Positions 7,201-57,393 of a stretch of 64,000 bases of DNA are shown here, one piece after another. Position 1 is the stretch's first letter; every line of letters begins with the position of its first letter. Origin of the DNA: Paraspadella gotoi (taxonomy: Eukaryota > Animalia > Chaetognatha); the NCBI GenBank assembly GCA_051294375.1, contig CM119265.1:17201172-17265171 (forward strand). The letters are read 5' to 3'. Position numbers and translations under genes: made by a program. Under the pieces are notes generated by a model. The model was not told where the DNA came from and ran no database searches. It worked only from the letters and a program-made list of their open reading frames with translations.

Positions 7201-9581
7201 GGTTGCCACGATCTGGCCGAATGCGTGAACACTCTCGGTTCCAGGGATTGCAATTGTCCTAGCGGATATTTGGGCGATGGAGTCAAAAGTCAAACTGGAT
7301 GCAACGACATTGACGAATGCGCGATCAGCAATGGTGGTTGCAACTTTTTTGCTGCTTGCGTTAACACTCCGGGATCCCGAGATTGCAACTGCAAAGAAGG
7401 TTACATTGGGGCGGGAGTTGGACCACTTGGTTGCATAGATGCCGATGAATGCTTAAAGGACAATGGAGGTTGCCATGAAAAAGCCACATGTAAAAACGGT
7501 CAGGGAGGAAGAAGCTGCACCTGTATTGATGGTTACAGCGGACCTGGCGAGGGGGAAAATGGTTGTGTGGATGTGGACGAGTGTCAAACAGACAATGGAG
7601 GTTGTCACCCTAAGGCTGAGTGTATTAACACCCAAGGTTCACGTGAATGTTCTTGTCAATCTGGCTACCTCGGCAATGGTATAGGAGAGTACGGTTGCAT
7701 AGACGTTAATGAATGCACGGTAGCCAATGGAGGATGCAATGACAACGCATTGTGTGAAAATGCCCCGGGAAATAGAATATGCACCTGTTTAGCGGGTTAC
7801 GAAGGAGACGGCATTGGACCTGAGGGTTGCAAGGATGTTGATGAATGTGCGACTGAGAATGGTGGCTGCAATAAAAATGCTGTTTGCATCAATTCCATTG
7901 GAACCAGAACCTGCAAATGCAATGCGGGCTTTGAAGGAGATGGAATCGGTTTTAGTGGCTGCAGTGACATCAACGAATGTCTTGTCAACAAAGGAGGTTG
8001 CAATGTCTATGCAGAATGTCAGAACACTGAAGGTTCTCGCGATTGCATTTGCCCAAGCGGATTTACTGGCGATGGCGTCGGCGAGGAAGGTTGTCTCGAC
8101 ATTGATGAGTGCGCTACAGACAATGGAGGATGTGACTATAGAGCCACATGTACAAACTCAGTCGGAACAAGAACCTGCACTTGTGGTGAAGGCTTTGTAG
8201 GGACTGGCGTTGGCAATGAAACTGGCTGCGCGGATGTGGATGAATGCCTTGACCAAAACGGAGGTTGTCACGCAGAGGCCTCTTGCAAGAATCTAGCTGG
8301 GTCCAGGACCTGCACCTGTAAAGAGGGTTTTGTAGGAGATGGAGTCGGTGTCTTTGGCTGTGTTGATGTGGACGAATGCAGACGAGACAACGGAGGTTGC
8401 CAACAATTGGCAACGTGCTCTAATATATGGGGCGGGAGAACTTGCACTTGCCCCGAGGGTTACGAGGGAAATGGTGTTGGGGAGGATGGCTGCAAAGACA
8501 TTGACGATTGCCTGAAACACAATGGAGGATGCAACAAAAACGCGGATTGCACCAACACTCCGGGTTCCAGGGATTGCGCCTGTAAACCGGGATTCGTCGG
8601 GAATGGAATTGGCTTCACTGGCTGCGTAGACGCCAACGAGTGCGAGGATGAAAATGGTGGATGCAGCGATCGAGCTCTTTGCGTAAACGAGGTCGGGTCG
8701 AGACTCTGCAAATGTGAAGAGGGATACGTCGGCGACGGAGTTGGTCCCGAGGGATGTCAAGACGTCGACGAGTGTGAAAAGGATAACGGAGGCTGCCACT
8801 CCAAAGCCGAGTGCACGAACGCGGTGGGAACTAGAGAATGCGCCTGTTTGCCCGGCTACTCGGGCAACGGAGTCGGGCCTTTCGGCTGTTTTGACGTGGA
8901 TGAATGCGCCGTAAACAACGGAGGTTGTCATGCACGCGCCGTGTGCAAGAATCTAGAAGGATCGAGGAAATGCACTTGCGAGGTCGGCTTCGAGGGAGAC
9001 GGAGTGGGAGAATCTGGCTGCGTCGACGTGGACGAGTGCGCGACCGATAACGGGGGATGCCACTCGAACGCCACGTGCGTCAACGTCCCCGCATCGAGAG
9101 AATGTACCTGCATCGACGGCTTTTTCGGCGACGGCGTCGGCAAATTGGGATGTCATGATATTGACGAGTGCGCCATCGACAATGGCGGATGCCACGCAGA
9201 TGCCGGCTGCGACAATCTTCTCGGAAGTCGCGAATGTAGATGCAAGGCCGGTTACTATGGCGACGGCGTCGGAATTTATGGATGTCGAGACGTCGATGAG
9301 TGCGAGGAAAACAACGGGAATTGCTCCGACGTTGCAATTTGTGACAATGTGAGTTATGGTTTGGAAACAACAGAAGAAGATGGAGCGAAAATAGTCAAAA
9401 GTCAAAAAGATGAGAAAAAAGGAGGACGTAAGAAAAAGAGAAAGAAAACAAAGACAGAAAAAAAAGAGGGGAAAAAAGAATAAGGGGAAAAGGATGAAAA
9501 TAGAAAAAAAGAAAAAAAAAACAAATGAAAAAATGAGGGAAATAAAAAAGATATAAATTAATTAATTAATTAATTAATTAA

Positions 9582-21469: not shown

Positions 21470-23554
21470 ATGAAAATCCTTTTCGTCCTAGTTTTGGTGG
21501 CTTTGAGCGTCAACAGCCTTTCGGCTTCTGTCATTCCAGAGAATCAATTTCGGGTAGACAAGAAATGGCAAAAGACAACAACAAGACTAGGGGTATCCCC
21601 ACTCAATGGGGTGCAGGGGCGGCGAGAGAAATGGCGGGCCCCCCCCACTGGCCCCCTGGCCGACACCCCCCACAGGCCCCCTGGCCGGCCCCCCCTGTTC
21701 TCCATAATTTTTGTTTTTAGTTTTCGATTACCGACTTTCTGCTTTGAGAATTGCTCCAGTGCTCAAACTTCTGCCTCCTCTTCTTTTTTCTTCTTCTTTT
21801 CTTTTTTTCTTTTTTCTTTCCTACTTTTTTCTCTCTTCTCAGGGCCATCCTGGGGGCGAATGAAACCCCCCTCTCGCCGCCCCTAATGGGGTGAGTAAAA
21901 AATTTCGGATGATTCCATGCTCAAACGAAAATTTCTACAATTTTAACTATACTTTCAAAGGACAAAACATTTCTTATATGGCTCTATACACAAATAATTA
22001 TTTTTATAATATTTATTAATATTTAATGATTTGATCCCCTTTTTGAGTTACTTTTACTTTCCCTGACCGGGGTTAGGGTTGGGGGTGGTTAGGGATAAAA
22101 GGGTTTAGGGTTAGGGTAATCAGATAATTTTTTTTTAAGTTTTTTTTTAATATAAGTATTTTTAAATGGTTTTTCAAAACCGCGTTTGGTGAAATTAAAA
22201 TTTAGCAAACTTTTTTATATTTTCACTTAGAAAACGGAATTTTTAAAAGTAATTATATTTCTATAATTATATATAATAGCAATTTTTAAAAGCTATAATT
22301 TTATTTCCCCGTTTAATTTTTTATGCTCGATCAGAATCAGAATCTGAATCTGGTCTTAAAATTTAAAATTTCCTCAAAATTATTTTGGACTTTCCTATCT
22401 ATAAATAAATATTAAAAAATTAATTACTATGGTATAGAGCCATATGAGAAATTTTTTGTCTATTGAAAGTATACTTAAAAATGTATAAATTTTTGTTTGA
22501 GCATGTACTCGCTCTAAATTTTTGACTTCCCACATAGACGAGACAAGACGTAGACCTGAGAAATATTTTTTTCTCTAGTTAAAAAGAGGTGGAATTTAAA
22601 AAAAACTTTTGACTAACGAATTTGTAATTTGTTCCATTAAAATTTAAAAAATAGGCAGTTTTAAGACAATCCTATCCAAATTGGAGGAATCGGGAGTTAA
22701 AATTTTTTCATACAACTATAATAGAGTTCACTAAGTGAAGATTAAAGACGTTTCTCGGTTTCTTTAAAATTAGGAGGTGCGAGGCGAGAAGGACGTTTTG
22801 ACGGACGAAGAAATTGCAAAAATCATCATCGACGTTATTGACGCCGAGGGGAACGTCGAGAAATACGGCATCATCTCAGTCATCACTCAACTCCCGGGTC
22901 TCATCAAGCAGTTTAAGCCGATTCTCTCGCGATACCTGGTCAGTATTCATAATTATTAATTATAACTATCGTATGACTATAAGGGGGAAACGTATAGGAG
23001 AGTGGGGAAGTAATGGAGAGCGAGACTGGAAAGAAGTAGCTTTCTAAACTTTAATGCTTTAAATTACAAAAAGCTTTATTATTTATACTTTTAGGACATC
23101 ATCCGAGACAACAATCTGAGTTTTGCTCAAAAACTAAGCAAAATCTGGGAAGCAACAAAGGAACAAATGGTTCCAATCATCAAGGTAAAATGATGGAATT
23201 TACTAATTAGTTCAGAAAATGTTCTATACATTAAACAATTTTCAGGTAAGGTACAAGTTTCATTAATTCTGATCAATGATATAAAAATTAATTTTAAATT
23301 TTAAAGCATGACTTTTAATAATTGTTGCGTATGTAACACTATGTATTCATAAATACAGAGAGTTGGTCACTCCCGAGTTCTTTTTTTACTGCTATTTTTA
23401 ACTACTTTTTACGCTGACTATATCTCAGAATGTTCACGAGTCACGACTCCGATTTCCATTGAATTTAAAAGCTAATTGTATTTTTTTTTCTTAGATTGTC
23501 GGAAGCGCTGCCGCGAAGGCAATTTTGGGCAACCTGATTTCTGCTGCGGCATGA
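21470..23554 (+). CDS. Orphan secreted amphipathic helical protein, 132 aa; exons 21470-21553, 22774-22938, 23095-23184, 23495-23554
   Basis: Signal peptide MKILFVLVLVALSVNSLSA; three phase-0 GT-AG introns; product ends ...GNVEKYGIISVITQLPGLIKQFKPILSRYLDIIRDNNLSFAQKLSKIWEATKEQMVPIIKIVGSAAAKAILGNLISAAA*. Confidence 0.8.
21588..22535. mobile_element. Foldback/MITE-like element with ~90-bp inverted arms (21897-21990 vs 22433-22522) and internal TTAGGG-like repeats
   Basis: The arms are reverse complements. The same left end (taggggta.cc...gctcaaacgaaaattt) recurs at ~54049-54200. Confidence 0.6.
21614..21885. mobile_element. hAT-type MITE
   Basis: TIR CAGGGGCGGCGAGAG / CTCTCGCCGCCCCTA; perfect 8-bp TSD ATGGGGTG (21606-21613, 21886-21893). 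Confidence 0.85.
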
Positions 23555-25370: not shown

Positions 25371-25690
25371 TTGCGCTAAGTGGGCTGAAGACATCTATCC
25401 GTTATCTTCTGTGCCCCCTCAGCAGCAATGGAACGGTTCCTGGGCAAAGAATTAGACTTGAGGGTTTTCCAGGCCCCCAAGTCTGTTTATTAGAGTGATG
25501 TGAAAATGATGTTTATGCTGAAAATGCTGTTTATGGCCGTCCTCACGCTTCCCGCAGAATAGGCACCATTGGGTCTCGATCCCGGTCATGAGCTGATGTT
25601 ATTACTCATTGAGCCACCGGGTCACGACTGAAGGTGACATGCTTATAGGCGGTGTTAACAACTGAACATATTGCAATGCCCGACTACAGT
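25371..25690 (-). mobile_element. Family D repeat, degenerate copy (tRNA-like head + decayed twister)
   Basis: Aligns by eye with 56527-56700. Minus strand has A-box-like TGGCTCAATG, B-box-like GGATCGAGACC, then GCGT-GA-GGA-CGGCCA-TAA-ACA-GC. Confidence 0.55.
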
Positions 25691-25701
25691 TCTATCATTT
25701 C

Positions 25702-28700
25702 TCATTTAGCCTTTATTGACTTCCGCCAACTTCGCTTGGCTTTCTACGTTCAAATATATTGAAATTCAAATTTTAAGACATCACGCCAATCCTCACCAGG
25801 TACCTTATGATTCATACGCCCTTATGGTTACCTGCTTCCTGTGCTCCCTTTCCATGTCTTTCTCGTCGACGTTGAGTTTCAGGGATTCGGCGATAAGATA
25901 TTCCTCGGCGAGGGCCTCTGCGGGGATGTTCTTGAGAGCCTCCACAGTCTCGTAGAGCCCTGGGCATTCGGCACATTGGGCCGAAGTTCCCAGAACAGAC
26001 TTGAAGAGAACGAGAGCGACGCGAAACAAAACTTTGATGCCTTCGCAGAAAAACATGTCCCAGACCTTCGGTAGATAATTGTAAATAATAATAAGTAAAT
26101 AAAAACAACAGGTTTAAACGTACTATATTACGAAGTTTCCTTTTGTTTCTAATATTTTGATAAAATCGTAATCATATTAAATTAATATATAGTCAACTTT
26201 TCAGTAAGTACAAGAACTTCAAACTGGACTGATATATTAAAAGAATTACGAGTTTAATCAAATCTTTTCGAATCGAACTAGATTGAATCTTACTCTGAGT
26301 ACTGAAGGCCAAGGTAGAGTCCTGCTGAAGACACACATAAACCACTCCATCATGATAAGGATGGGGTCGACCCTCTGCTTCTTCAAATGTTTGTAAGTCA
26401 CGTTGGAGGATTTTTTCAATAAGCCGAACAAGACTTCTCCATCAATTTGAACTTGCTCCAGGCCGGCGCTGTAGTAACCGGGCATGTAACTGCGAAAAAT
26501 GATAAATATTTAACGAAAAAGAGGCACTACAAAAAAAAAACAAAAAAAACGAAACAGCAAATACATTTTCAAGGCGCTCACCGGTCGCAAATGGAAGTGA
26601 GACTCCAGAAGGCTTGCTCCTCGGGCATATGCATGAGCAAGACGGAGGCGAGCGGTGCCATGGCTTGGCAGTAACCGTCGACGGGGTTGTGGGTGGCATA
26701 GGCGATGAGGACGTTGAAGAGGTTTTTCTGTCCCCAACCGCCGGCAGTCGCGAACATCTCGTGACAAGGAAATTGGCGGTGTAGGTCCTTCGTTATGTCG
26801 TCCACCCAGCGGGGGTCGTGCTCCTTCATTTTTTAAAGAAATTCAGTTGCTATTTCAAAGATCTAACCGAGAAAATACCCACACCCTCCTCTTGAATTTA
26901 TTGGCAAGTCAGTCAATTTTCAAATATACGTATATGACAATTTTTTTCTTTAGTATTCATATACTTTTCGAGATAAAAATAGCATGTACCATTTTAAAAA
27001 AAAAGACGCTCTTCTATTTTTTATGCCCTTGAATTCCTTTTTTAACGACTCCTCAGTCCTCACCATTTGTAAGAGCCTCTCATATCTGCCCTCGTGATGT
27101 TCCATCATGTATTTACTGCCACACAAATAGGACCAAGACAGGGCTCGTAACGAAGGTGGAATTCCCTTTCGACATCGGTCTGAAATAGGATTGAAATCCA
27201 TTTTATTCTCGCCTAGCAAAAAAGGAATAGAAACTAATATTTTTCACCCTTAATCTTGTGAAATCGTTTAGACATCCATCGTTCCCAATTGTCGATCATG
27301 TCCAGCCACTTCCGTTCTCGCCGGCGCATGCGCTCCACAGAAATCTAAATCGTTCAATTTATGAAAGAAAAAAATATCTAGAAATAGGTTAAACAAAAAT
27401 TATACATTTATTCAATAAAAAAGCTACCTTGCCCCTGACTTTGGATAGGTTTTAATGTTAAGGCCTCCGTCCCTCTTACAAAATAATACCATACTACATT
27501 CACGGTCTAACATACATGGTGACAATTTTACAAGCGCCGGTAGAAAAACGCTGTCATTTGCAAACCCATGAAGATTTTTTCAATGTTAAATATGAATTTA
27601 AAAGTAAAACCCAAACTATTTATATATGCAATTTTATCAGAATCGACTTTATTATTCCTCAGCAATGATAGCAGGAAGATGGATTGAAAATCGTCTCTAA
27701 TTTTTAAACTCACTTTTTTTAGATTTAATTTTTTTCTCTTACTTTCAGTAAGTTTTCTGAAGAAATTTGAAATAAAATAATATTAATATTATTATTTTCT
27801 GAAAGCCTTTTCAAATCTAAAGAGAATGAGTACTTACAAATACTGTAGTATAAGATTTAACTGGCCCAGCTTTAATTTAATTAGGATACTCAAAAACGAG
27901 ACAACTTTTTAAAAATCAATAGCTGGAGAGTAAATTTATGATTTTTATTAAATTGTGATTGGCTATTCTTAATCTTTGTTCAGGCTCTTTCATGATGCTT
28001 ATATAAAGAATAATATTTCATGTTATAATAATTTAAACAGGTCATATATTTTGGAAAAGATTTAAATATGTCCTTAAATAGATTCACTTTTGACGCACTT
28101 CATTTACTAAACCTAAAGGCTGAAAGCAGCTTACTTTTGACGTTAGAGCTTTTCGTACTAATATCAATTGCTCTCCTCATAATTTTTAAGCGGCTTCTGA
28201 GGATAAGTTTTAAAAAATTCGATTTTAACAAACAGTTTGAGTTGGAAAATAAAACCCTATTTGAAAAGACAACTTTCTCCACTAATTGTCAAGGCATATC
28301 TTAACTGATCAATATAAAATTCAGTATTTTCTACTCAACTAATTTTTAAAATCAATGAAATAACCACTGGTTTGCAAATGACAGCGTATTTCTACCGGGG
28401 CTTGTAAAATTGTCATCATATACGTAAACACTAAACAATAGCAATCACCCTATTCACCAAATAAAGGACGTACTTTATTAGGTAGACTAGTGTTGCCGGA
28501 GTATTGCTCGCTGCCAACGAAGAACCCGAATCTATCTGTTTGCACGAGTGTTACGCCTTCAGTTGCCGCCGCTGCCGCCTCCGCCGACTTGACGCCACCC
28601 CCATCCTCTTCTTCTTCCTCCTCCGACTCGGACTCGGAGTCGTGACGGCCAGCGTCCGACGAGCTCGTCCGAGGCCGCGCGAAGGCCACTCCCAGCGGCG

Positions 28701-30590: not shown

Positions 30591-31143
30591 TGAAGAGACC
30601 GTAATTATTATTATGTGTTAGTTGACTTTCCAGAACCGTTCAATATAAGGCATCCTGAGCTTCGGATCAGGCTTGTAAACACCATGTTACAAGGCGGGTT
30701 AAGCGCGCTCCAAACCTCCGTCAACCTCTACCGGCCTAAGACTGCCCACCTGGTTGTAAGGGAGCTGGGTATGAGGGAAGTGGACTTTGCGCTCCGGCAC
30801 GGCAATGGCCACGTGAGAAATCGCGGTGGTGGATTTTTTTTATTTTAGTCACCATAACATCCCCCCCTTCCCGTAGGGAAGAGAGAGAAGAGAAGAAGAA
30901 GGGAAGAAGTCTGTTGCGTCTCTTCAGTGAATTGTTGGTCGGGAAAGTTCGGCACCACGAAGTGAAGGCATGTGCCGCCTGAGATTGTCGTGTGGGTGGG
31001 CGGGACAGCAGGGAGGAAGACGAGCATGTCACCCCCAGGGGTGGTTTAGGCATGTCGCCTGGATGGAAAGCCTAGTTGTTGATTTTGCGTGTTTTGTGTT
31101 CGGAACGTCGGGTCACCAGTGAAGAGAGAGAGACCGTATTGTC
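30591..31143 (-). mobile_element. Miniature LTR element family A, divergent copy; 3' LTR 30591-30856, 5' LTR truncated
   Basis: Homologous LTR; PPT GGAAGGGGGGG; PBS TGGTGACCCGACGT (tRNA-Trp 3' complement); twister core at 30649-30746. Confidence 0.75.
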
Positions 31144-31857
31144 TCGGGAATAGTAAATTTTTTCTTTTTTTTTTTAAAAAAATTTTTAAACTTTTAATAA
31201 AAAAGTCAAATTCTTCATAAAAAGTTGAATAAAAAATATAAAACATGTTATCAAAAATTCTGTCGTCTTCAACGTTTAAAACGGGAAAAAAGATAAAAAT
31301 TATAACTTTTTTATTCTCTGTAGTAAGAACTTATATGTTATAATGTTTTAATCATTTTTTTATCATCCAAACATTAAAAATATCTTATAACTATATTTAA
31401 TTTTTTTAAAAAATTTTTTACGGCGAATCCAAATCTGTTTTTAAAGTAAACAAAATTTTTAAATTTAACGATTTTATAAAAATATTTTTACATAAATAAT
31501 TGAATTTACTTTACTGTTATGCTTAAAAAATTTTTAAAAAGATTTAAAATTTATTAATTACATATCCATAAGCAATAAAAAATAATGGTCAATCACTCAA
31601 TCTTTTCATCACTCCACCCTACTGTTTATATCAAACTAAAATAACTTTTAATTTATATTTATATTTAAAACATTTTATCATGCTACTACATATATTTTTG
31701 CTATGGGGTAAAAATACTTTATTGGTAATCAAATAAAATTCAGTCTTTCCTTTTTCCAAATCCGAAAAAAAACAAAAAAAAATCATATACCTTCGTTAAA
31801 ATTTTTAACTCCAAAAACTGTTATACTTTTTAACTAGATTTTAACCAAATCTTATCT

Positions 31858-32510
31858 TACGGTGGACTAAAATCCACCAACCGTTCATCAGCGGCCATCG
31901 GTGCCGGAGGCAAGTCATTCGCCTCCCAACCCAAAGGTCCGGGTTCTTGCCCGGTGGTCGTCTGGCAGTTAAGAGACGGGGCGCTTAACCCGCCTGTAAC
32001 ATGCGTGCTTACAGCCTGATCTGAAGCTCAGGGACTGCTTTATTGAATGTTCTGTCATTAACACATATCAATTAATTACTGTCTCTTCATTGGTGAGGCC
32101 GACTCCGAACACAACCAGCAACAACACTTTCAGGCGACATGCCCTCTAACTAGCGATGCACTTTCCGCCATCAACACATCAGGCACATGCCTCAAACTTG
32201 GTGACGCAACTTTCCCCAACAACAACAACACTTGAAGAGACACAACAGGACTTCCCCTCATGGAGGGGGGATGTATGGTGGACTAAAAATCCACCAACCG
32301 TTCATCAGCGGCCATTGTGCCGGAGGCAAGTCATTCGCTCCCAACCCAAAGGTTCGGGCGTTCTAGCCCGGTGTGTCGTCTGGCATGTTAAGAGGGACGG
32401 GCGCTTAAACCCGCCTGTACATGGTGTTACAGCCTGATCCGAAGCTCAGGGACTGCTTTTATATTGAACGTTCATGTCACTTAACAATATCGAATATTAC
32501 TGTCTCTTCA
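31858..32510 (+). mobile_element. Miniature LTR retroelement (TRIM/retrozyme) family A: 5' LTR 31858-32089, PBS ~32091-32104, PPT 32262-32270, 3' LTR 32274-32510
   Basis: Direct repeats of ~235 bp, TSD ATCT on both sides, TGG-starting PBS 1 nt after the LTR, GGAGGGGGG PPT, no coding capacity. Confidence 0.9.
32382..32457 (+). ncRNA. Twister ribozyme type-P5 candidate in 3' LTR (second copy 31964-32039 in 5' LTR)
   Basis: GAGG-GA-CGG-GCGCT-TAA-ACCC-GC-P3-CCTGA-TCCGAAGC-TCAGG-GACTGC; T1 CCG/CGG and T2 GC/GC are complementary. Confidence 0.65.
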
Positions 32511-33370
32511 ATCTAAACATTTTTGGATAAAATTTATAAAAACTATTTCAGAAAGGTCTCATGATTAGGGCTTTAATTTGAAACCACACCCAACTTCCTA
32601 TCTCTTTTCTTTCAAAAGTTATACAAAAAAATAACCCTTTTTTACCATCGGAAAACTAAGGATTTGAACTACGCAATACAAATCTCAGTTAAATAAAAAT
32701 TTTTATCATCTGGAGACATCACTTTCAGTTGTAGCCATCGTCTTACTCATTTACACTATTTTACTGTATCATTCTAGCCGAATCATATTTTGCATTTTTT
32801 ATCCAGCATAATTGTCAGAAAATGATAGCTTGTAAATACAAATGGTCATACAAAATAAATTCAATGACCGCGGTCGGCGAAAGTAAAATTTTGCCTTTTT
32901 ATTTCGAGCAAATGAATTTTATTTTTCTTTGCGTCTTAAATAATCTCCCAGGAAGTGGTAAACACGAGTCAAAATACGTGAAACTTGTTTTAAAAAAATT
33001 CGGCCGATAATACTTGGTATCACCATCACCATGATTACGAAGTGAGCAAGTCAGAACGAAAGGGAGTATTCGAGATCCCATTTGGATTCCCCGAACAAGT
33101 GAACCTTGTTTCACATCAATGGCGGCCCTCAGCGATTTTTCCATCTGTGTGCTGCCACCTGTAAACCCAATCTGGCGAAATACGTTCAGGTTTAATTAAT
33201 AAAAATAGATATTTGATTTTCGACTGACGCTATATAATCTGATCTAAGGCATTACAATTTCAGTGATTTATTCAGCCTAAGGATAAACTTTGAAACATAT
33301 ATAGCGTACAGACCGAGATGATAGTCGAAAAATCAAACGCTGTTTTTATATCAGAAGGGTAGGATATTAA

Positions 33371-33992
33371 GGGTGATCATATAAGGCGGAACAAGGTAAA
33401 AACTAAGAGTTCCGTCATATAAATAACGTTAAAGCATCCCTGTGGGATAACGAAATTTTAAAAAAAATAAGATTTTATGTATAGTTAATTACATAGAAGC
33501 ATTTAAAGTTTATCGTATTACTATAAATCATGAAAATTTTATATTTCAAATTCAGAATTTTAAAAACGGATTCGGGTAAAGCTTGAAAAAATAAATAAAA
33601 AATATTATTACAAGAATTTCAAATTTTTATATTTTATTTGTTAAAATTAGCAAAAACTAAAAAAATTATGGTCTGAAGATGATGATGATTTTTAAAGGAT
33701 TTTTTCCCTTATTTGACCCACTTATCATCGAAATATTGAAAAACGCACTATACTTTGTGTAGACAACTTTTTATGGGCTATCTGAATCCGTTCTTAAAAA
33801 AAAAAAATTTTACATTTTTTTTCATTGCCTATGCATTTATAAATATTTAAATTCTTAAATGTTATACTGTGCTTCACTAGTTATAAAAGTGATGGCAAAT
33901 ATTGATTAAGTAAATGATGGACAAATGAATGTTATATGACAGAACTTCTAATGATAAAAAGGGATCAAATTTAACCCGCCTTAGTGGTCATC
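33371..33992. repeat. AT-rich MITE-like repeat with degenerate ..taaggcgg.. inverted ends; relative at ~52916-53455
   Basis: Inverted taaggcgg / ccgcctta ends; shared internal tc.gaatccgtt motif. Confidence 0.35.
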
Positions 33993-34721
33993 GAATATCA
34001 ATCACATTATTACTAATATTACTATACTATCACATTGGGTATTCGAATAACTGTTAGCTAGCAATGTTACTAAGCGAACTAGAACAAAATAATTAAGGAA
34101 AATACAAACTCGAGATACGATTACAATGAAATTATATTTTAAATGTGGTAAAAGTACTATTACTTACAGGTTCAGTTTGCCGAAACGAATAAAGAAAAAT
34201 TTAGAAACCAGAGTAGTACTTTTTCCTTCCCATACAATGTGAAACACGTAAAATAATTTGGCATGCAAGTACGAAAAAGATCAAACATCGTCCGTTTAGG
34301 AGGCAAAGATTCCATTCTAAATTCCCATATACATATTTCATTATTATTAATTCCAGTGCAGTTACAAAGCAAATCTAATTTCCCTAATGTGATTCAGTGA
34401 TAAGTATAATTAGTTTTTTCAAATCATTGCTTCTTCACGGATGAACGGTGAAAGTGGTTTTTTTAGTTTTTTTTTTTTTTGTTTTTTTTTGTTTGGTTTT
34501 TTATTTTGACATTAAGCTATATAAACATACTGCAAAAAAGTTCATGACGTGTCCAACTTTTGGTAAAAGAATAGCAGAGAAAGAGTTGATTATGACGAAA
34601 ACGTTATTTTTATCCAATGCATCAACGAGCAAATTTTATTCCCAGCATTACCTTTCAAATTATAAGAACCCTTAGTCAAGTAAAAACCCACTGGCGGCAC
34701 CTGAAGAAAAACTGAGTCATC

Positions 34722-37700
34722 TTAAAAATCACAATCCTGAATCTCGTATCGCATGACGTCCCCTTCCAGTAAATGAGGCGACGTGTGAAAAAAACTGGGA
34801 AGCGTGGTCGGTGACAGAGGGTCACCGGCGCTGACGTTAATGAAACCGAGGAAAGAAAACATTCTTATCAAGGTCGAGGTGGCATTGGGTCCCCCTAAAC
34901 CAGAGCTTCCAGAACGCGCCGTTATCTTTGGCAAGCAAATGAAAACTGACTCGCAACCCAGTTGGTCCTCAGCGAACTCCAGCAACTGAATTAAGCTGCA
35001 AAGCAAGTTGAGAAAAAACTGTAGCAGAGGAGGTGTTGAACTGAAATATTGCTGCAATATTGTTGCTACAATTATTGTCAACGTTAACCGTAAAAAATGA
35101 ATATTGATTAAATCTTAAATTAAAACATTCCTGTACTCGCCTCTCTTTAGATCCAGACGCGCCTCCAGACGGAAATCGTGGCACGACGAGAGCCTTGTTG
35201 CACAACACGGCATCCCAGACAATCTCCAGCGAAGAAGTCAGCGGCACGGTGAACTTAACAGGGACGGCGAGATCGTTCGCCTTTCCCACTACTTCCCCGG
35301 CCGCCTCTTTCAAAGGCCCGTGAAACGTCGAGAAGCTAAATCCAGAATCGTCATCGCTAGAGCGAGGAGGGAGAGGTAAGAGGGAAATGACAAGCAAAAT
35401 GAATAAGAAGGATTAACGGAGCCGAGAATTAAATTGTAAACCTAGTCGGTCCGTCCTCGCTGTCGGAGTCATCCAAGTCCGATGAAGTCGCCGAAGAAGT
35501 CGAATCGACCGTGGAGGCCCCGTCGCTGGACATCCTGGTCCTTTCGACAGGATTAGACAACGAAGTGTTCCCATCTAAAAGACGTAAAATATATTTATAC
35601 ATACAGTACGTACTAAAGGCGCCCACCAGGTACAAAATTCCTAGTGTAAAACTTAACAATTTTACGACAATGCTTATGAGATTACCTTTTCCTGGATAAC
35701 CGACACCGTTTAAGCCAAAGCCACTTATCGGACCCACGTGTTGAGTCGTTTCATTAACTTGTCCAAGAACATAGCGTGATTTGAGCCCGGAAACACCCTT
35801 AAAGAATGAATTTATGGTTTTTATTTGCGCGGCGAGTACTCGCGGAGCAACTGTCACTTTTCGGTCGGTCTGTCGGTATATCTGTCCATTGGTCTATACC
35901 ACTTACGTTAAAAATGCATATACTTTGCTCATTTGTTAATACAGGAAAAGGCCTCAAATCTAAGTGACTGCTAGCTCCGACTTCAGGAAATCCTAAAACT
36001 TTAAAGAACAAAAGACAAGATTCTGATGCAATGCGTGTCATAAATACTCGTGAATTTTTTTTTTTTTAGAAGAAATAATATAACCTTAAAAAAAATAACT
36101 GTGGCGCAACACGTTTGAATAACCGTTCTTGTTTTTATCGTAATTCGTGAAAGTTACGTACCTCGGTGACATTGAAGGTGTCTACGCGATCATCATGATG
36201 TTTGACAATCACAGAGGGAAAAGAAGATTCCCCCACGCTGCTACCCTCTGCCAATAGTGACACGTCGTTTGCAGCATGGGGAGCATCAGGAACACCACAG
36301 AGGCCCCTCCCCCGGGTTAGAGGAGCAGAGGGAGGCCGGCATCACAGATGCGGAGACGATCTGGGATCCACTCATGGAGGTCCTTAAACATGAAAAGGAA
36401 TTTCGAGATTAAAATTAGATTATCTTCTCGAAATGAGTTTAATGATTGATTTACCACTGATCTTGATACTACGTCAAAAAAAAAAAGGTTGCGACCGATA
36501 AAGTTCACTACTACGCAGTAGAATAAGGCCGTATTGTTTAGAATGTTATCAACCGAGAATTATAAGGGTCGGTTTCGAAACAAAAAAAAATAAACGCAGG
36601 GGATTCGATTTTTCGCCCTTCACAACAGAGATCGAGATCACGAACCCGATAAAAACAAACGTAAAAAAATATCCAGGATGAGGGAGAACGTTGATTGAGG
36701 AAGGCAATTTCATTGGTTACTGACGAATGGCGATTGGTTCCGAGAAGGAGATTCAAAATGTGATGATTAATGAGTTGAGAGGTAAATAATTATTAGCAAT
36801 TAGACATTTTAAGCTATGCCTATGAACAATTTTGAGAAAAAATACAAGACCGAACCGAAATACAACAAAGTTGAAAAATCGACTTTCTTCTCAGTCACTT
36901 ATACTTACCGATTATAGGAATTAGACTTATCAGTCTGTTGGTTCTTATTCCAACAACCCTCTCTAAAACTAACACGAAGGTTAGTAAAAGTTTTTATAAA
37001 TGCGGCCCAAGAACAAAACCAAAGTCAAATACTAAATAGTGAAGAGACAGTAATTATTGTTATGTGTTAGTGACAGAACCGTTCAATATAAGCAGTCCCT
37101 GAGCTTCGGATCAGGCTGTAACACCATATTACAGGCGGGTTAAGCGCCCCGTCCCTCTTAACAGCTAGGCGACCACCGGGCTAGAACCCCGGACCTTTGG
37201 GTTGGGAGGAGAATGACTTGCCTCCGGCACCAATGGCCGCTGATGAACGGTTGGTGGATTTTAGTCCACCATACATCCCCCCTCCCATAGGGCGAAGTCT
37301 GTTGCGTCTCTTCAGTGAATTGTTGTTGGAGGAAAGTTCGTCACCAAGTTGAGGCATGTCGCCTGATGTGTTGTGGGCGGAAAGTGCATCGCCAGGTTGA
37401 GGCATGTCGCCTGAAAGTGTTGTTGTTGCTATTGTGTTCAGAAGTAGGGCTCACCAATGAAGAGACAGTAATTATTGTTGTGTTAGTGACAGAACCATTC
37501 AATATAAGCAGTCCCTGAGTTTCGGATCAGGCTGTAACACCATATTACAGGCGGGTTAAGCGCCCCGTCCTTCTTAACTGCTAGGTGACCACCGGGCTAG
37601 AACCCCGGACCTTTGGGTTGGGAGGAGAATGACTTGCCTCCGGCACCAATGGCCGCTGATGAACGGTTGGTGGATTTTAGTCCACCATAATAGGTTAATA

Positions 37701-38613: not shown

Positions 38614-40500
38614 ATGGACTTTGGATCGAGTAGTTTAGGGGGAGGAGGCGGCGGCGGCGTCGGGGGTCGTCTCTCGGGCGCCCAGAAAGAAGCGCTCATG
38701 GAGCAAGTAAAGCAGCAAGTAGCCTTACAGGTATAATTTGCCACTCATTTTACACCGGGGTCGATGAGAAGTTAGGAAAATTTAAAGGGTGGGGCTTACA
38801 ACCGAGGTTCAGTACTATTAATTATCTGTGCTGCTGTATCTATTTTAGACATTCAACGAACTTTTGCAAAAGATGACGAACAAATGCTTCACGAAGTGCG
38901 TCTCGAAACCAGGCAAGCGTTAATTTAAAAGTTTTAATGCCTTATGACTAGGTACTGTTTTTAAATCCTGACTCATTAGTAGTCATTAGTAGAGTGATGT
39001 GAAAATAATAAAATTTTAAAAAATTAAAATTTAGCATATAAAACATAAAATTAAAATTTAATAAAAATATTTTTTTTTTATTTTTATGAAATTGGAACAA
39101 CCAATATAAAAATTATCCATTCATTTAATAAATAAGCTATCTTGCCCCTGACTTTGGACAGGCTTTGGTGGTTTAAGGCCTCCATCACTCTTACAAGATA
39201 ATGACATAGCAGGTCCCTGCATTTATTAGTGGGTGCCAGTGAGCTATTTTTATATATAATAATATATATAATAGGCTAAAATTTCAAAATGAAAATTTTT
39301 AAATTTTAAGATTGGATTTTAATTCTTTGTAAAAAGTTGATATAAAGAATGAGTATTAATTTCTTTTAAAAAAAAATTTTCAATAAGTTGGACAGAAATA
39401 TAAAAATGAAATTTGAGATAACGAAACTTTTTAAGACTGGGGGGGGGGGGTAAATTAAAAAGACATAAAGCTTAGCAGACTGAAAACCCCGGAACCAATG
39501 GCGTCGTAAAAGTTATTTTAACTGTTTATTTTTGAAAGTTACGTGATTCCCGTTTTAATAATTTAGTATAATTAATATTATTTTAAAAAAAAATATTTTG
39601 AACAACAAATTTATTTAGAATGAATTCAATTCATTTGCGCTGATGAAGGCTTACATTGAAGCTGAAACATGTTTATTTTTTATATTAAATAAATTATTGT
39701 TCAAAATAAAAAAAAAATTTTTAATATTATTAATGTAAAAAACGAAAGAACCAAAACAATATAATAAAGCATTAGTTATTTCTATTCAAATCCATGAAAT
39801 GTATACAGAATAGTACAAAAAATTTATGGCAGTATTTACGAATAAACTTTTTATAAAATTAGTACAACTAATATAAAAATTATTGCAGTTATTTAATAAA
39901 TAAGCTATTTTGCCCCTGACTTTGGACAGGTTTTGGTGGTTTATTTTAGAAAGAAGTTTCGAAATCTCGAATGACCGCGAAAGAAAGAAACGAATATTAA
40001 TATATATATATATATATAAATATATATATATTTATATCTCCGATATAAAAAAGTATCTGAGTTGTAAATGATCGTCCAGACTTTACAAAGGCTGATTTTT
40101 AATTTTTACCTTAAAAATATAGCTTTTTATTATTTGAACATATTTAATGACATAATTTATGAAAAAGATTTATATTTTTTTTCTTAACTTTTATCAAGGA
40201 ATCTGAATGTGATCTCAGAATTTAAAAAAAATTATTTTAAAATTTTGATAATATATAATTAATAATAAAAAGTAATTATAGATTAGTATTCATTAATATA
40301 ATAGTTTTCAAGATATAACTGTTAAATTTTTATTCCTAACTCATTAGTTTAAATATTACAAATATTTACATCCGTTAGGTACCTCTTTGGATAGTGGGGA
40401 ACAACGGTGCCTAACTTATTGTATGGAGCGATATATGGATACGTGGAACGTTGTTTCAAAGACTTATCAAAACAGGATTTTAAAAGAAAGAGGATCCTAA
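38614..40500 (+). CDS. TIMM13: Mitochondrial small Tim chaperone Tim13; exons 38614-38730, 38849-38912, 40379-40500
   Basis: MEQVKQQVA...[37 protein letters not shown] twin CX3C motif; intron 2 has a GC donor. Confidence 0.92.
39086..39240 (+). repeat. Short interspersed repeat (atgaaattggtacaacc...aagctatcttgcccctgactttggacaggc...); copies at ~27420, 39870, 46452-46840 (interrupted), 47526, 57023
   Basis: Near-identical blocks recognised at six positions. Confidence 0.8.
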
Positions 40501-45076: not shown

Positions 45077-47324
45077 ATGAATGCTCGTATCTGGGCTGGA
45101 GTTACGGCGACGGCCGTATCTGTGGCGGCGTTATACGGGGCGTCAACCAGGAATGGGAGATCAGACTCAGAGAGCAAAGCTAGTCTCCTGGCTAAGGGAG
45201 AAACGACTTTGAAAGCAGATGAGGTGATTGTGATTCAAAACGGCTTAGACGCTAAAGCAGAACGCCGTTCCAAGCAAAGACGAATTTTTTCTGAAGCCAT
45301 CGAAAAACTTCCGAGCGTATTTCCTCTTCCATCAAACATATGGAACGTCAACTGGGACGCCCGACATACATCTTCCAATCAGTCTGCCTCTTCCGATCAA
45401 TCTCACGACGGCACCGTCAACAGCACGAGTTTGCCAACGTCTTCCCGTCATCTTTTTCTCATTCGCCACGGCCAATACCACACGGAAAAAGCTCGGGAAA
45501 TCGATCGGAAATTGACTGAGTTAGGATCAGAGCAACTCGACCTCACGGGACAGCGATTGGCCGATTTAGGCATTCAATTCGATCGCATGGTCGCGTCCAC
45601 GATGACGCGTGCCCAAGAGTCGGCGAGGATAATCCACAAGCGATTTCCTGATCTCAACTTTGAAAGCGACCGTCTACTGGAAGAGGGAGCGCCCGTCCCG
45701 CCCGAGCCTCCAATGAAATCGTGGGCGCCTCCATTGGAACAGTTCTTGGAAGACGGACCGAGGATAGAGGCTGCGTTTCGAAAGTACTTTCATCGCGCCG
45801 ATGTATCTCAAAGTAGCGACTCACATGAAATACTCGTTTGTCATGGAAACGTGATCCGATTTTTTGTCTGCAGAGCGCTACAGGTTGGAGCATGTCTTTC
45901 ACTATTGGTATTGCTATATGGTAAAATAAAATTGCCGCGGAAACTTTTTAACTATTTTTTTGCCATTTTAATGTAAGAATCGAAAAATAAAATTTAAACA
46001 TCAATAAACTTTGGCCTTTTGTGATTCATATGAACTATCATGCAAAAGAAAATTTGTTGTCCAAGAAAATGTTTCCTTCTTTTTTATATTTAAATTATTG
46101 TAAATTTTATTTTTTATACTACTTTTTTCTATTGCTTTTTTTTAGTTGAACCGGTATTATTAAAGAGGACTGCCTTTGCTGTGTCTCATGTCAAATGGTT
46201 GCTGCATCATCTTCATTAGGATAGATTTAAGGATGAATCTTTATTCATATGTAAAAGAAGATACATTGATGCTGTAAATGCTTCAGAATAGTTTTCATAT
46301 TGTAAAGCATCAATAAAAGTTAAAAAGCTCCGGGTAACTTTTTTGTAAGCAAAATTAATATTTGTATTTATCTCAAGATTTATTTATCTCAGTAATCAGT
46401 ATCAAGTATCAAACAAGTCGAAAATAAAATAAAATATTTTATAATATTATTATGAAATTGGTACAACCAATATAAAAATTATTCATTTCAAAATAAATAA
46501 ATAAGCTATTGTGGCAGCAAGACTTAAAGCTGCCTCACTGCTGTCCGTCCTCAGCCTCGTCTCAATGGCTGAGCAGGCTAAATCATCTCATTCCATCCGT
46601 GCGTCCCGGGTTCAATCCCCGGGTATCCCGGTTCTGGCTTAAATGTGACGGCGCCGGTATAAACATGCCAGTGACAGGAGGCGGTCACTGAGGGTCCGCA
46701 GCCCCTACGCCAGTTAGTGAGATACCCCGCGCCCCGGGTATCACAGGCTATCCTCCCGTTGCCATACTATCTAATTTGGACAGGCTTTGTTGGTTTAAGG
46801 CCTCCATCACTCTTACAATATAATGACATAGCAGGTCCATTCAAGCTTTCAATCAGGACTCTCAGTCTCGATTATTCACTCCCAGAGTGCATTAGTATAT
46901 TGTGCAGCAATAACAACATTTTAGTATGTTTCATAAGTGATCAGTCCTTTTTACTGTTTGCCAAGGACCATTTCTCACCACAAATCTGTTAAAAAAGTTA
47001 AATAATTTTGTTGTTGAAAATAGATATTCTTATTCCATCCTAACTAGGTTTTACTATAAATTAAAACATATTTTTTGCAAGAAACGTATTTGACAATGAA
47101 GTTAACTAATTTTTCTAAACCGCGACAATTTTTTTTTCCGTAATTTTATTAATAATAACTTATGACCTATTTTACCCCTGCTGTAGATCCCTCCGGAGGC
47201 CTGGCTTAGAATGGGAGTCAATCATGGCTCGATCACCTGGTTAACTGTCCGCCCCAGTGGTCGAGTCGTTTTGCAGTCGCTCGGAACTACGGGTTATATG
47301 CCACCTAAGAAGATTAGTGTTTAA
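45077..47324 (+). CDS. PGAM5: Mitochondrial Ser/Thr phosphatase PGAM5; exons 45077-45883, 47187-47324
   Basis: [50 protein letters not shown]. Confidence 0.93.
46510..46766 (+). mobile_element. Solo LTR family C (257 bp) with tRNA-like head and twister, in PGAM5 intron
   Basis: Termini TGTGGCAGC...GTTGCCATA; exact TSD CTAT (46506-46509, 46767-46770); A-box TGGCTGAGCAGG, B-box GGTTCAATCCC. Confidence 0.8.
46634..46713 (+). ncRNA. Twister ribozyme type-P5, best-formed copy
   Basis: P5 CTGGC/GCCAG, P2 ACAT/ATGT, G-A, T1 CCG/CGG, U^AA (46660^46661), T2 GC/GC, P3 CAGTGAC/GTCACTG, P4 AGGG/CCCT. Confidence 0.8.
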
Positions 47325-55700: not shown

Positions 55701-57393
55701 CAAACTCGAGGGCAAAGTTCCTCTCTTCGGTTTCAGGTCTCAATGGGGAAGTTAAATGCATCGGTGGAAACCAAGATCAGATCTTCTTTTTACATGAATA
55801 CAAATCCATCTAGATTTTAACACTACCCACTTACCTAGATACGGATTATTTGATTTTTCTGGTTGCCTTACTCTAGTGGAGCTCCCTGGACGTTGATGTC
55901 GTACATGATCGAAGGCGGAGGATCTACGACGCAGAGCAAAGCTAAGCGTTGGCTCTACGCCCACCCTGCAGCCTCCGAAGATCTCCTCGATCTCCTCGCC
56001 GACGTCATTACGGAATACCTTGTGCAACAAGCTTTGGCCGGTGCCCAGCTTCTTCAAGTTTTTGAGTCCCACGCCGGGATTCTTGGACCCCACCTCTTCC
56101 TTAAATTTGCCTTGCCTCGGCTCATCCGGATAGCCAAGGAGGTGAGACCGAAACGCCCAAAGCGCCCAAAAGGAACTTACAATTGCCTTGAAGTTGAATT
56201 TGGAATTTTAAATTATTACTTAGAAATTTCATAGGTTTATAAAAAATGTTAAGCTATAGAATAAATTATTTGAGACTGTTGTAGCCGCCTGATTACTGAA
56301 ATTGAATTCTAGTCACTGGCGCGGTTACCCTAGGACGGTCTCGCTTTGCCAACGCAGAGGGAAGTCGTTAGGACTGTGGATGGTAGCACAACGCCTGGGA
56401 TGGTGTGTTCCCCCTCCGAGCCAATGATATTGGCTGAACGATCGTGGACGTGAGGTGGTGTGAATTAAGAAATAAGAAAAACATGATTAAAATTCGGAAC
56501 ATTGGATGCTGTAAGACTGTGGATAAGGCGCTAACTGGGTTGAAGAGTGCTATCCGTAACTTTTTAACCCCCTCTAGCAGCCATGGAACGGGTCCTGGGC
56601 TTGGACCCAGGCTTGAGGGTTTTTCAGACCCTCAAGGCGGTTTACGGCTGTTCTCACGCTTCCCACCGGGTAGGTCCCATGGGGGATCAAATCCGGTACC
56701 TAATGTACATATTAATTAAGGAACTAAACGGTTCCTGGTCGCGTTCCATAACTAGATCGGCGTCGTTGCGCTGTTAATTTATTAATGATTTTTTTTTTTT
56801 CAGGTAAAGAGGAAGCTCACAACTCTCCGAGTTTCACCTCTTCCACCTTTAGTAATTTTCGCGAAAGACGCTCACTTCGCCCTCGAACAAATTTCAGACG
56901 CTGGCTATGATATGATGGGCCTAGACTGGACCATTCCTCCGGTCCAAGGGAGACAAAGAACTGATATCACTTTGCAAGGTCGGTTGTTCTGATTATATGA
57001 GTTGCGTTTCACCGTTTTCTCATATGAAATTGGTACAACCAACAAGTACAACAACAAGCAATATAAAAATTATCCATTAATTTCATAAATAAGCTATCTT
57101 GCCCCTGACTTTGGACAGGCTTTGATGGTTTAATATTTTATTCTCATATTTTCACTTTTTCTTATATTTGCCACTGTGTAGGTAATCTCGATCCCTGCGC
57201 TCTCTACGCTCCCAAGGAGGACATTCGACGTTTGACCGAAGAGATGCTTCGCGGATTCGGGACCCAAAAGTTGGTGGCTAATTTGGGACACGGGATTTAT
57301 CCCGACATGGACCCAGAGAGCGTCGCCTCCTTCGTCGCCGCCGTCCATGAAATTTCGGAACTGATAAATTCCGAGAAAAATGACGCTTTATGA
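52734..57393 (+). CDS. UROD: Uroporphyrinogen decarboxylase; exons 52734-52883, 53704-53865, 55549-55736, 55877-56141, 56804-56978, 57182-57393
   Basis: [58 protein letters not shown]. Confidence 0.96.
56312..56470 (-). mobile_element. Family B fragment with 5' half of twister (56352-56312)
   Basis: TTGGC-AAA-GCGA-GA-CCG-TCCTAGGG-TAA-CCGC-GC-CAGTGAC, truncated in P3; homologous to 5108-5250. Confidence 0.65.
56583..56666 (-). ncRNA. Twister type-P5 candidate in family D repeat (~56510-56710)
   Basis: GCGT-GA-GAA-CAGCCG-TAA-ACC-GC-CTTGAGGGT/ACCCTCAAG-CCTGG-GTCCAAGC-CCAGG. The 25.5-kb copy supplies T1 GGA. Confidence 0.55.

Follow-up and report, generated by a model that had tools for sequence, protein, structure and literature searches.

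A 64,000-nt stretch of the genome of the chaetognath Paraspadella gotoi (contig CM119265.1, forward strand, positions 17,201,172 to 17,265,171; hereafter the window) contains a family of miniature long terminal repeat (LTR) elements whose LTRs hold a twister-like ribozyme core. We conclude that these elements are a real family of miniature terminal-repeat retrotransposons (TRIMs) and, as far as sequence can tell, that they carry a real twister variant; should it cleave, the family would be a new form of the retrozyme design. To the fuller reading we give about an even chance: a non-coding mini LTR element with a likely self-cleaving, P5-permuted twister, in other words an LTR retrozyme, which is likely mobilised by the CsRn1 clade of Ty3/gypsy elements.

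Anatomy and dispersal of the element family

An initial annotation of the window had described two complete elements of ~650 bp and a truncated third, with ~235-bp LTRs, a primer-binding site (PBS) for tRNA-Trp, a polypurine tract (PPT) and target site duplications of 4 bp (TSDs). We located all three copies as claimed (elements A, B and C), and the anatomy is supported by sequence comparison, blastn and the CsRn1-clade motif. Their parts are as follows.

31858-32510, + strand: element A, complete TRIM, TSD ATCT at 31854-31857 and 32511-32514
31858-32089, + strand: A 5' LTR, ends TA...CA
32091-32103, + strand: A PBS, CsRn1-type tRNA-Trp motif, degenerate
32260-32273, + strand: A PPT
32274-32510, + strand: A 3' LTR
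37040-37689, - strand: element B, complete TRIM, TSD CTAT at 37690-37693 and 37036-37039
37458-37689, - strand: B 5' LTR
37444-37456, - strand: B PBS
37274-37287, - strand: B PPT
37040-37273, - strand: B 3' LTR
30591-~31140, - strand: element C, 5'-truncated diverged copy, 3' LTR at 30591-30856 and PBS at 31105-31118

The LTRs are 232-237 nt long in A and B and 266 nt in C, whose 3' LTR and internal part are retained while ~20 nt are left of its 5' LTR. By blastn the LTR pair is 97.0% identical in B and 88.2% in A. The LTR termini are TA...CA rather than TG...CA, the PBS starts 1 nt past the LTR, and the 3' end of the PPT reads GGGGGGATG. All features of a TRIM are present: two LTRs, a length of 650-653 bp (<1 kb), a PBS, a PPT, a short TSD and the lack of coding sequence. 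Among the 83 open reading frames (ORFs) scanned near the repeats, those of the elements gave no Pfam match, and none of the 83 matched a reverse transcriptase (RT), an integrase or a GIY-YIG domain. The PBS agrees with the published motif of the CsRn1 clade, TGGTGAG/CCCCGT/A; this gypsy clade is tRNA-Trp-primed and makes a 4-bp TSD (PMC2582038, PMC3630058). ARAGORN found no tRNA in the LTR and Rfam gave no match there, in scans that left degenerate Pol III boxes aside. In the internal regions (32090-32273 and 37274-37457) one 13-nt motif is present twice, and the reverse complement of the last 9-10 LTR nucleotides lies at internal position 144, where it would close a stem around the PBS.

Of 12 sequencing runs, 10 contain the window, and none of these is recorded as RNA. 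Contigs of runs X1, X5, X8 and X10 were compared with element B at 80% likeness. Matching contigs numbered 15,274 of 4,416,630 in X1, 3,912 of 688,116 in X5, 1,260 of 448,509 in X8 and 1 of 1,356,659 in X10; runs X11 and X12 had none, which, like the single contig of X10, is no proof of absence. Loose ends with mixed flanks clustered at the LTR ends in three of the four runs, with a flank agreement of 0.41-0.44 in X1, where 211 contigs met the junction at 37039/37040, 45 that at 37274 and 105 that at 37690/37692 (figures among the 20 of 837 loose ends listed; summed depth does not equal copy number). The family is dispersed and multi-copy; its ends are fixed, and its insertion junctions number some 200 at the least. 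Run X8, guessed to be RNA, showed flank junctions like those of the DNA runs and was not used as evidence of expression.

A joint from 37457 to 37040, considered as the mark of a circle or a tandem copy, was rejected, being the normal LTR-PBS junction. A C-type subfamily was not seen: no contig lay over 30711-30810 and none was 99% alike. The unique part of C is uncovered by contigs, and its apparent compensatory changes, which may be assembly errors, are given little weight. At a further loose end, position 37088, contigs of X1 and X5 share the last ~49 nt of the LTR and then diverge; the family behind it is a candidate sister family or helper. Searches of public collections for relatives of the element returned chance matches alone (1; 0; and 2 in bacterial genomes), and the 61 metagenome loci from the search for relatives comprised one Rfam-grade twister and one sub-threshold one, none being element-like by blastn.

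The twister core and its relatives

Helix names (P1-P5), T1 and T2 and the catalytic assignments follow the Rfam consensus line and PMC11662667. Four cores lie in the complete elements and form, with that of C, family F1.

31964-32039, + strand: A 5' core, P5 to P5', P2 broken, predicted cut before 31987
32382-32457, + strand: A 3' core, with P2, T1, T2 and P4 intact, predicted cut before 32407-32408
37507-37582, - strand: B 5' core, P2 and T2 broken, predicted cut before 37557
37091-37166, - strand: B 3' core, the best F1 copy, one P5 mismatch, predicted cut between 37142 and 37141

The elements of the core stand in the P5-permuted order that had been claimed for them. In the B 3' core (- strand) the catalytic G falls at 37153, T1' at 37151-37149, the linker at 37148-37143 and L4 at 37110-37103. 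T1 and T2 can pair in A 3', B 3' and C, and the catalytic G and A, U^AA and the L4 adenosines are present, judged against the Rfam consensus. P2 has 3 bp and a bulge, short of the 4 bp of Twister-P5, and the P1 hairpin is replaced by a 6-nt linker that could form 1-2 bp in cis and 6 bp only in trans. What the initial annotation had called a mini-P1 amounts to 1-2 bp at most, closing a palindromic loop; that annotation had been right about the P2 bulge and about mutated copies, the cores of A 5', B 5' and C being broken. The C core has an insertion that separates P2' from the catalytic G, and its linker ends in an 8-nt palindrome; the A 3' core has indels in the linker and P5. Between the predicted cut sites we computed 416 nt in B and 420-421 nt in A, for a claimed 416-420 nt. 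A full-core descriptor, written after the motif had been seen and with its target known, matched A 3' and B 3' and nowhere else in the window; when the B 3' LTR was dinucleotide-shuffled 20,000 times, five of the shuffles matched.

Reference twisters for comparison with the LTR core came from phage and metagenome loci. A core-pattern search of phages yielded 59 loci, of which 20 were run through Rfam and two proved to be Twister-P5 (L014 and L030); eight further loci were then run, four of them scoring above gathering, among them the metagenome locus L313 (48.1 bits). L313 and the LTR core are identical letter for letter in L1, T1, the 3-nt P2 strand, T2 and L4, and have in common GA-CGG, UAA-CCC-GC and the loop UCCGAAGC. 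Compared with L313, the LTR core has a bulge in P2, gains a P3 and a closing P5, and has only 6 nt where P1 would be. The L313 motif itself (781-837), an Rfam-grade type-P5 twister with a 3-bp P2, lies in an intergenic stretch of its metagenome contig. A second metagenome locus, L340 (54-119), holds a sub-threshold twister-like motif (21.5 bits) on a contig of 41% GC, with a bulged P2 and the short spacer before P4 that is also seen in the F2 family described below; a 20-nt duplication comes after the motif. Short-linker twisters in phages numbered 0 in one search; another returned 25 loci, none with both P2 and P4. By Rfam the element contains no hammerhead.

Two further repeat families of the window, F2 and F3, carry related cores.

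39138-39200, - strand: F2 twister core, not LTR-flanked, with compensated P2, T1 and T2, another P5, a palindromic linker and no P3
39085-39250, 39848-39943, 46446-46838, 47522-47548, 27395-27493 and 57025-57133, all - strand: F2 copies
56586-56667, - strand: F3 twister core, with bulged 3-bp P2, 9-bp P3, 5-bp P4 and 6-nt linker
56530-56700 and 25373-25586 (partial), - strand: F3 copies, 73-78% alike

From F1 to F2, C-G becomes A-U in the first pair of P2, and G-C becomes A-U in one pair each of T1 and T2; the 7-bp P5 of the 39-kb F2 copy differs from that of F1 yet is paired. The compensatory change in P2 also settles the pairing register as the one in which the catalytic G stays free. F3 differs in T1 and in the bulged base and has its 9-bp P3. 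The covariation in T1 and T2 rests on few families, with double changes in F2 and a changed T1 in F3. Cores with a 6-nt linker and a bulged 3-bp P2 numbered four in the window and 0.04 per shuffle (100 shuffles, post hoc), whereas a loose general descriptor did not discriminate (6 matches against 2.69, and 17 against 13.5, in shuffles). Because its core is identical to that of L313 and covaries across F1, F2 and F3, we conclude from these comparisons that the LTR fold belongs to a real twister lineage. A twister variant missed by Rfam occurs in three repeat families within 64 kb. The initial annotation had missed the sister families that supply this covariation, as well as the self-complementary linker and the competing hairpin considered below.

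The F2 family has a fixed 3' end and a variable 5' start; in two of its six copies this start lies 1-2 nt away from the predicted cut, for which p is about 0.012 if truncation is uniform. F2, and F3 with it, may be the tails of a Penelope-like element; a parent of F2 was looked for in vain. F1 resembles F2 in the ribozyme core alone, where it matches the 27-kb copy at 19 of 22 nt. The tails are no more alike than shuffles, and for that reason the view of F2 as an old LTR belonging to the F1 family was dropped. The 27-kb copy is intermediate in P2 and T1 between F1 and the other F2 copies.

Several smaller observations concern the surroundings of these repeats. The 46-kb F2 copy is split inside L4 by an insertion (46510-46774) with tRNA-like A and B boxes by eye, likely a short interspersed element. 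Two elements resembling miniature inverted-repeat transposable elements, with inverted arms of 114 and 136 nt, lie at 27510-28425 and 21886-22535, the first adjoining the 27-kb F2 copy. The better-kept F2 and F3 cores (39138-39200, 56586-56667 and 57025-57133) are antisense to host genes (URO-D introns and a small + strand gene), and the two most decayed ones are sense to a TBC gene; the numbers are small.

A possible replication cycle and its rivals

In the cycle that we propose, a transcript crossing both LTRs would be cut at two U^A sites to give an RNA of 416-421 nt without terminal repeat. Once closed by a host ligase, the circle would serve as template for a helper RT with tRNA-Trp as primer, and the resulting over-length cDNA would enter the genome with a 4-bp TSD. 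Since cuts in both LTRs would remove the terminal repeat, ordinary strand transfer could not work and a circle would be needed. Plant retrozymes make good the loss of their R repeat through circularisation and over-length cDNA (PMC4918200), and RtcB circularises ribozyme-type ends in vitro (PMC7229834). For the initial annotation's proposal of an LTR retrozyme built on twister, the TRIM anatomy, the CsRn1-like PBS and TSD and the twister identity hold up, and the remainder is predicted.

The linker suggests how such cuts might be confined to full-length transcripts. P1 has 8-9 bp in L313, L014 and L030; the same place is taken by GGCGCT in F1 and AGGCCT in F2, both self-complementary (F1 with a G-U pair), and by CAGCCG and CGGCCA in F3, each one CpG away from a palindrome. 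Amphibian retrozyme hammerheads with a 1-bp helix and a palindromic tetraloop cleave efficiently only as dimers (PMC7229834), and so, reportedly, do the hammerheads of Penelope-like elements (PMC6765202). As P1 is reduced to a self-complementary hexamer, we propose that the two LTR copies might share it: the 5' and 3' linkers would pair into one 6-bp P1 of a nested "double twister", in which each ribozyme would take one strand per LTR and no new pseudoknot would be required. With such a structure full-length transcripts would be cleaved, whereas a circle, which has one ribozyme, would be left with that ribozyme mostly inactive. In the three of five segments with an intact linker, the calculated gain from a trans P1 over the monomer twister was 5.6-6.3 kcal/mol per ribozyme; in the two with damaged linkers it was 0.4 and 1.1 kcal/mol. 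The full model, which we offer tentatively and think rather unlikely to hold in every part, is an LTR retrozyme run by a double twister (of the LTR pair or of two packaged RNAs), with both cuts made only on the full-length transcript, a stable circle, and a module that would have moved between Penelope-like and gypsy-dependent elements. A cis hairpin of 1-2 bp or a packaging dimer signal would explain part of the linker pattern.

Several results weigh against a functioning retrozyme. The core sits at the same place in five of five LTRs, as the annotation of one in each had it, but is complete in only two (A 3' and B 3'). The Rfam Twister-P5 model, proposed at that time as a check, gave no match in the window or its sub-regions at the gathering score (37.6 bits, RF02684) or at E<=10; the LTR core likely escapes it because of the P2 bulge, the added P3, the closing P5 and the 6-nt P1. 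In favour of the twister, a screen of ~2,600 natural twisters found P1 dispensable and P2 bulges and deletions tolerated, the pseudoknots and catalytic residues being indispensable (PMC11662667). A model built from six phage and metagenome twisters only gave 12 window matches at E<=10; nine of them fall on F1, F2 and F3 (five LTR copies and four F2 or F3 copies), which also speaks for it, but no single match is significant (best E 0.11). The covariation among F1, F2 and F3 could predate capture by the LTR element; as the likeness is limited to the core, it does not show selection while the twister sat in the LTR. Core identity between B and C was 31 of 35, against 76 of 83 in the rest of the 3' half (p=0.73). 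Variants make up 7% and 12% of depth at two T1 positions, much as at other LTR CpGs (7-11%), so that the copies show no sign of selection. Contig ends did not accumulate where F1 would be cut, among the 20 listed loose ends.

The calculated folds point the same way. In A 3' and B 3' the free ensemble is 9.2-11.8 kcal/mol more favourable than the twister secondary structure. This gap, which is 2.0 and 4.0 kcal/mol in the reference twisters L014 and L313, arises here from a competing hairpin in which T1' is paired with P2. The double form lies 5.3-16.4 kcal/mol above the best free dimer, and on the whole B transcript its cost per ribozyme, 9.5 kcal/mol, is barely lower than the 10.0 of a pair of cis folds. 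Sense and antisense strands of the LTR fold about equally well (z -1.79 and -1.73), and neither the LTR nor the circle folds consistently better than shuffles (circle z +0.40 for B, -2.45 for A). Because pseudoknots and magnesium are left unscored in these energies, and because a blocked fold is also predicted for the ribozyme of plant retrozyme RNAs (PMC4918200), we regard the unfavourable values as a caution and not a refutation.

These points can be read as the traces of a dead passenger, in which an otherwise ordinary TRIM acquired its twister by capture from a different mobile element, for instance from the kind of Penelope-like tail that F2 might be, and now replicates by normal R-region strand transfer with the ribozyme misfolded or idle. 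We consider this account unlikely. In its favour, the confinement of F1-F2 likeness to the core fits a capture, the competing hairpin imposes a penalty of 9-12 kcal/mol, the core shows no excess conservation between B and C, and a young family would be uniform whether the motif works or not. It sits less well with the fact that F1 has its own paired P5, its own P3 and its own self-complementary linker, and that even the diverged C retains GA-CGG, UAA-CCC-GC, P4 and L4. Variation within the family also speaks against it, although not significantly by itself: among the 40 of 60 rows listed, all six variants at >=20% depth fall outside the catalytic core, one of them changing a pair of P5 to G-U and another being located in the P3 loop. 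Across the family's loose ends the P2'-GA-T1' stretch shows 0.98 agreement.

Cleavage might instead be partial and lead to no circle, the twister trimming or down-regulating read-through, or only one LTR copy being transcribed whole, so that uncut RNA with its R regions is the RT template. The blocked fold predicts just such slow or partial cutting, the twisters of Perere-3 trim the RNA 5' end without circles (PMC8501958), and none of the three window copies is a tandem of the form LTR-internal-LTR-internal-LTR. A cut in either LTR would nonetheless remove the terminal redundancy, which is costly unless the product is the template (PMC4918200), and we think this course of events distinctly improbable. 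That there is no twister at all, and that one is mimicked by hairpins in a chance arrangement (on the opposite strand a loop of the cUUCGg type, or else a signal for packaging and dimer formation), would account for the lack of an Rfam match, for strands that fold equally well and for the success of descriptors written after the motif was seen; it must also explain why all core nucleotides are identical to those of an Rfam-grade twister, why both pseudoknots and P2 show double compensatory changes between families, and why so few shuffles match the full-core descriptor. We therefore deem it very improbable, and retain the LTR retrozyme as our working interpretation.

Significance and comparison with known systems

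The elements lie among host genes: seven of 12 ORFs had matches, comprising an EGF_CA array, tetraspanin, AZUL, Band 7, Rpp21 and Rpp14, a set that suggests an animal host. An intronless open frame of 1,086 codons with tandem 132-nt calcium-binding EGF repeats occupies 6223-9483 (+ strand).

If the retrozyme interpretation is correct, the range of LTR retrozymes would widen to take in animals as well as plants and the twister as well as the hammerhead, and the cycle of cutting, circularising and borrowing an RT would have arisen more than once. Eukaryotic twisters, mostly without a known role, would gain a testable job, and a twister that depends on dimer formation would represent a new mode of regulation, the counterpart of double hammerheads and useful for RNA circularisation constructs. 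The initial annotation had known of no description of such a system; the literature searched shows the LTR-retrozyme design only for plant elements with a hammerhead, and it yielded neither an LTR element with a twister nor an LTR retrozyme in animals nor a natural dimeric twister, subscription journals, Repbase, Dfam and the supplements of PMC11662667 lying outside the search and the supplements possibly holding similar variants.

Plant LTR retrozymes (PMC4918200) are similar in being non-coding, with a ribozyme motif per LTR, a PBS, a PPT, a 4-bp TSD, a gypsy-type helper, which is putative here, and a ribozyme whose predicted fold is blocked. They differ in that their ribozyme is a type III hammerhead and ours a Twister P5 in an animal host, their PBS is for tRNA-Met and ours a CsRn1-type one for tRNA-Trp, and their size is 600-1000 nt, whereas the elements here have 650 bp with a unit of 416-421 nt. 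Cleavage and circles are demonstrated for the plant elements and are predicted here from sequence. With TRIMs, including the animal ones, and with Helenus, Ajax and Cassandra (PMC10886601) the family shares a length below 1 kb, two LTRs, a PBS, a PPT, the absence of protein and a captured structured RNA in the LTR, and with the animal Helenus also a 4-bp TSD; the captured RNA is here a ribozyme core and not a tRNA or 5S promoter. The CsRn1 clade (PMC2582038, PMC3630058) has the same PBS motif and 4-bp TSD, but the elements here have no coding region and end in TA...CA where that clade has TGT..., and the ORFs scanned near the repeats gave no helper.

As a ribozyme, the LTR core resembles Twister P5 (RF02684) in element order, G-A, U^AA, T1, T2, P4 and the 8-nt L4, and departs from it in the change of P1 from 8-9 bp to a 6-nt linker, the bulged 3-bp P2, the added P3 and the closing P5; a P2 of 3 bp is also found in the Rfam-grade L313. 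A helix of ~1 bp, a palindromic loop and tandem copies recall the dimer-dependent type I hammerheads (PMC7229834, PMC6765202), which are another ribozyme class; here the setting is a true LTR element and dimer activity is predicted. The T-variant twisters of Perere-3 in Schistosoma mansoni (PMC8501958) are likewise twisters of a retroelement, with copies starting at the cut as in two of six F2 copies; that element is non-LTR and has one ribozyme, at its 5' end, to which the TSD contributes the 5' strand of P1. The non-LTR retrozymes (PMC7229834), finally, are tandem repeats without LTR, PBS or PPT and with a long TSD, in contrast to the compact elements with paired LTRs, PBS, PPT and 4-bp TSD described here.

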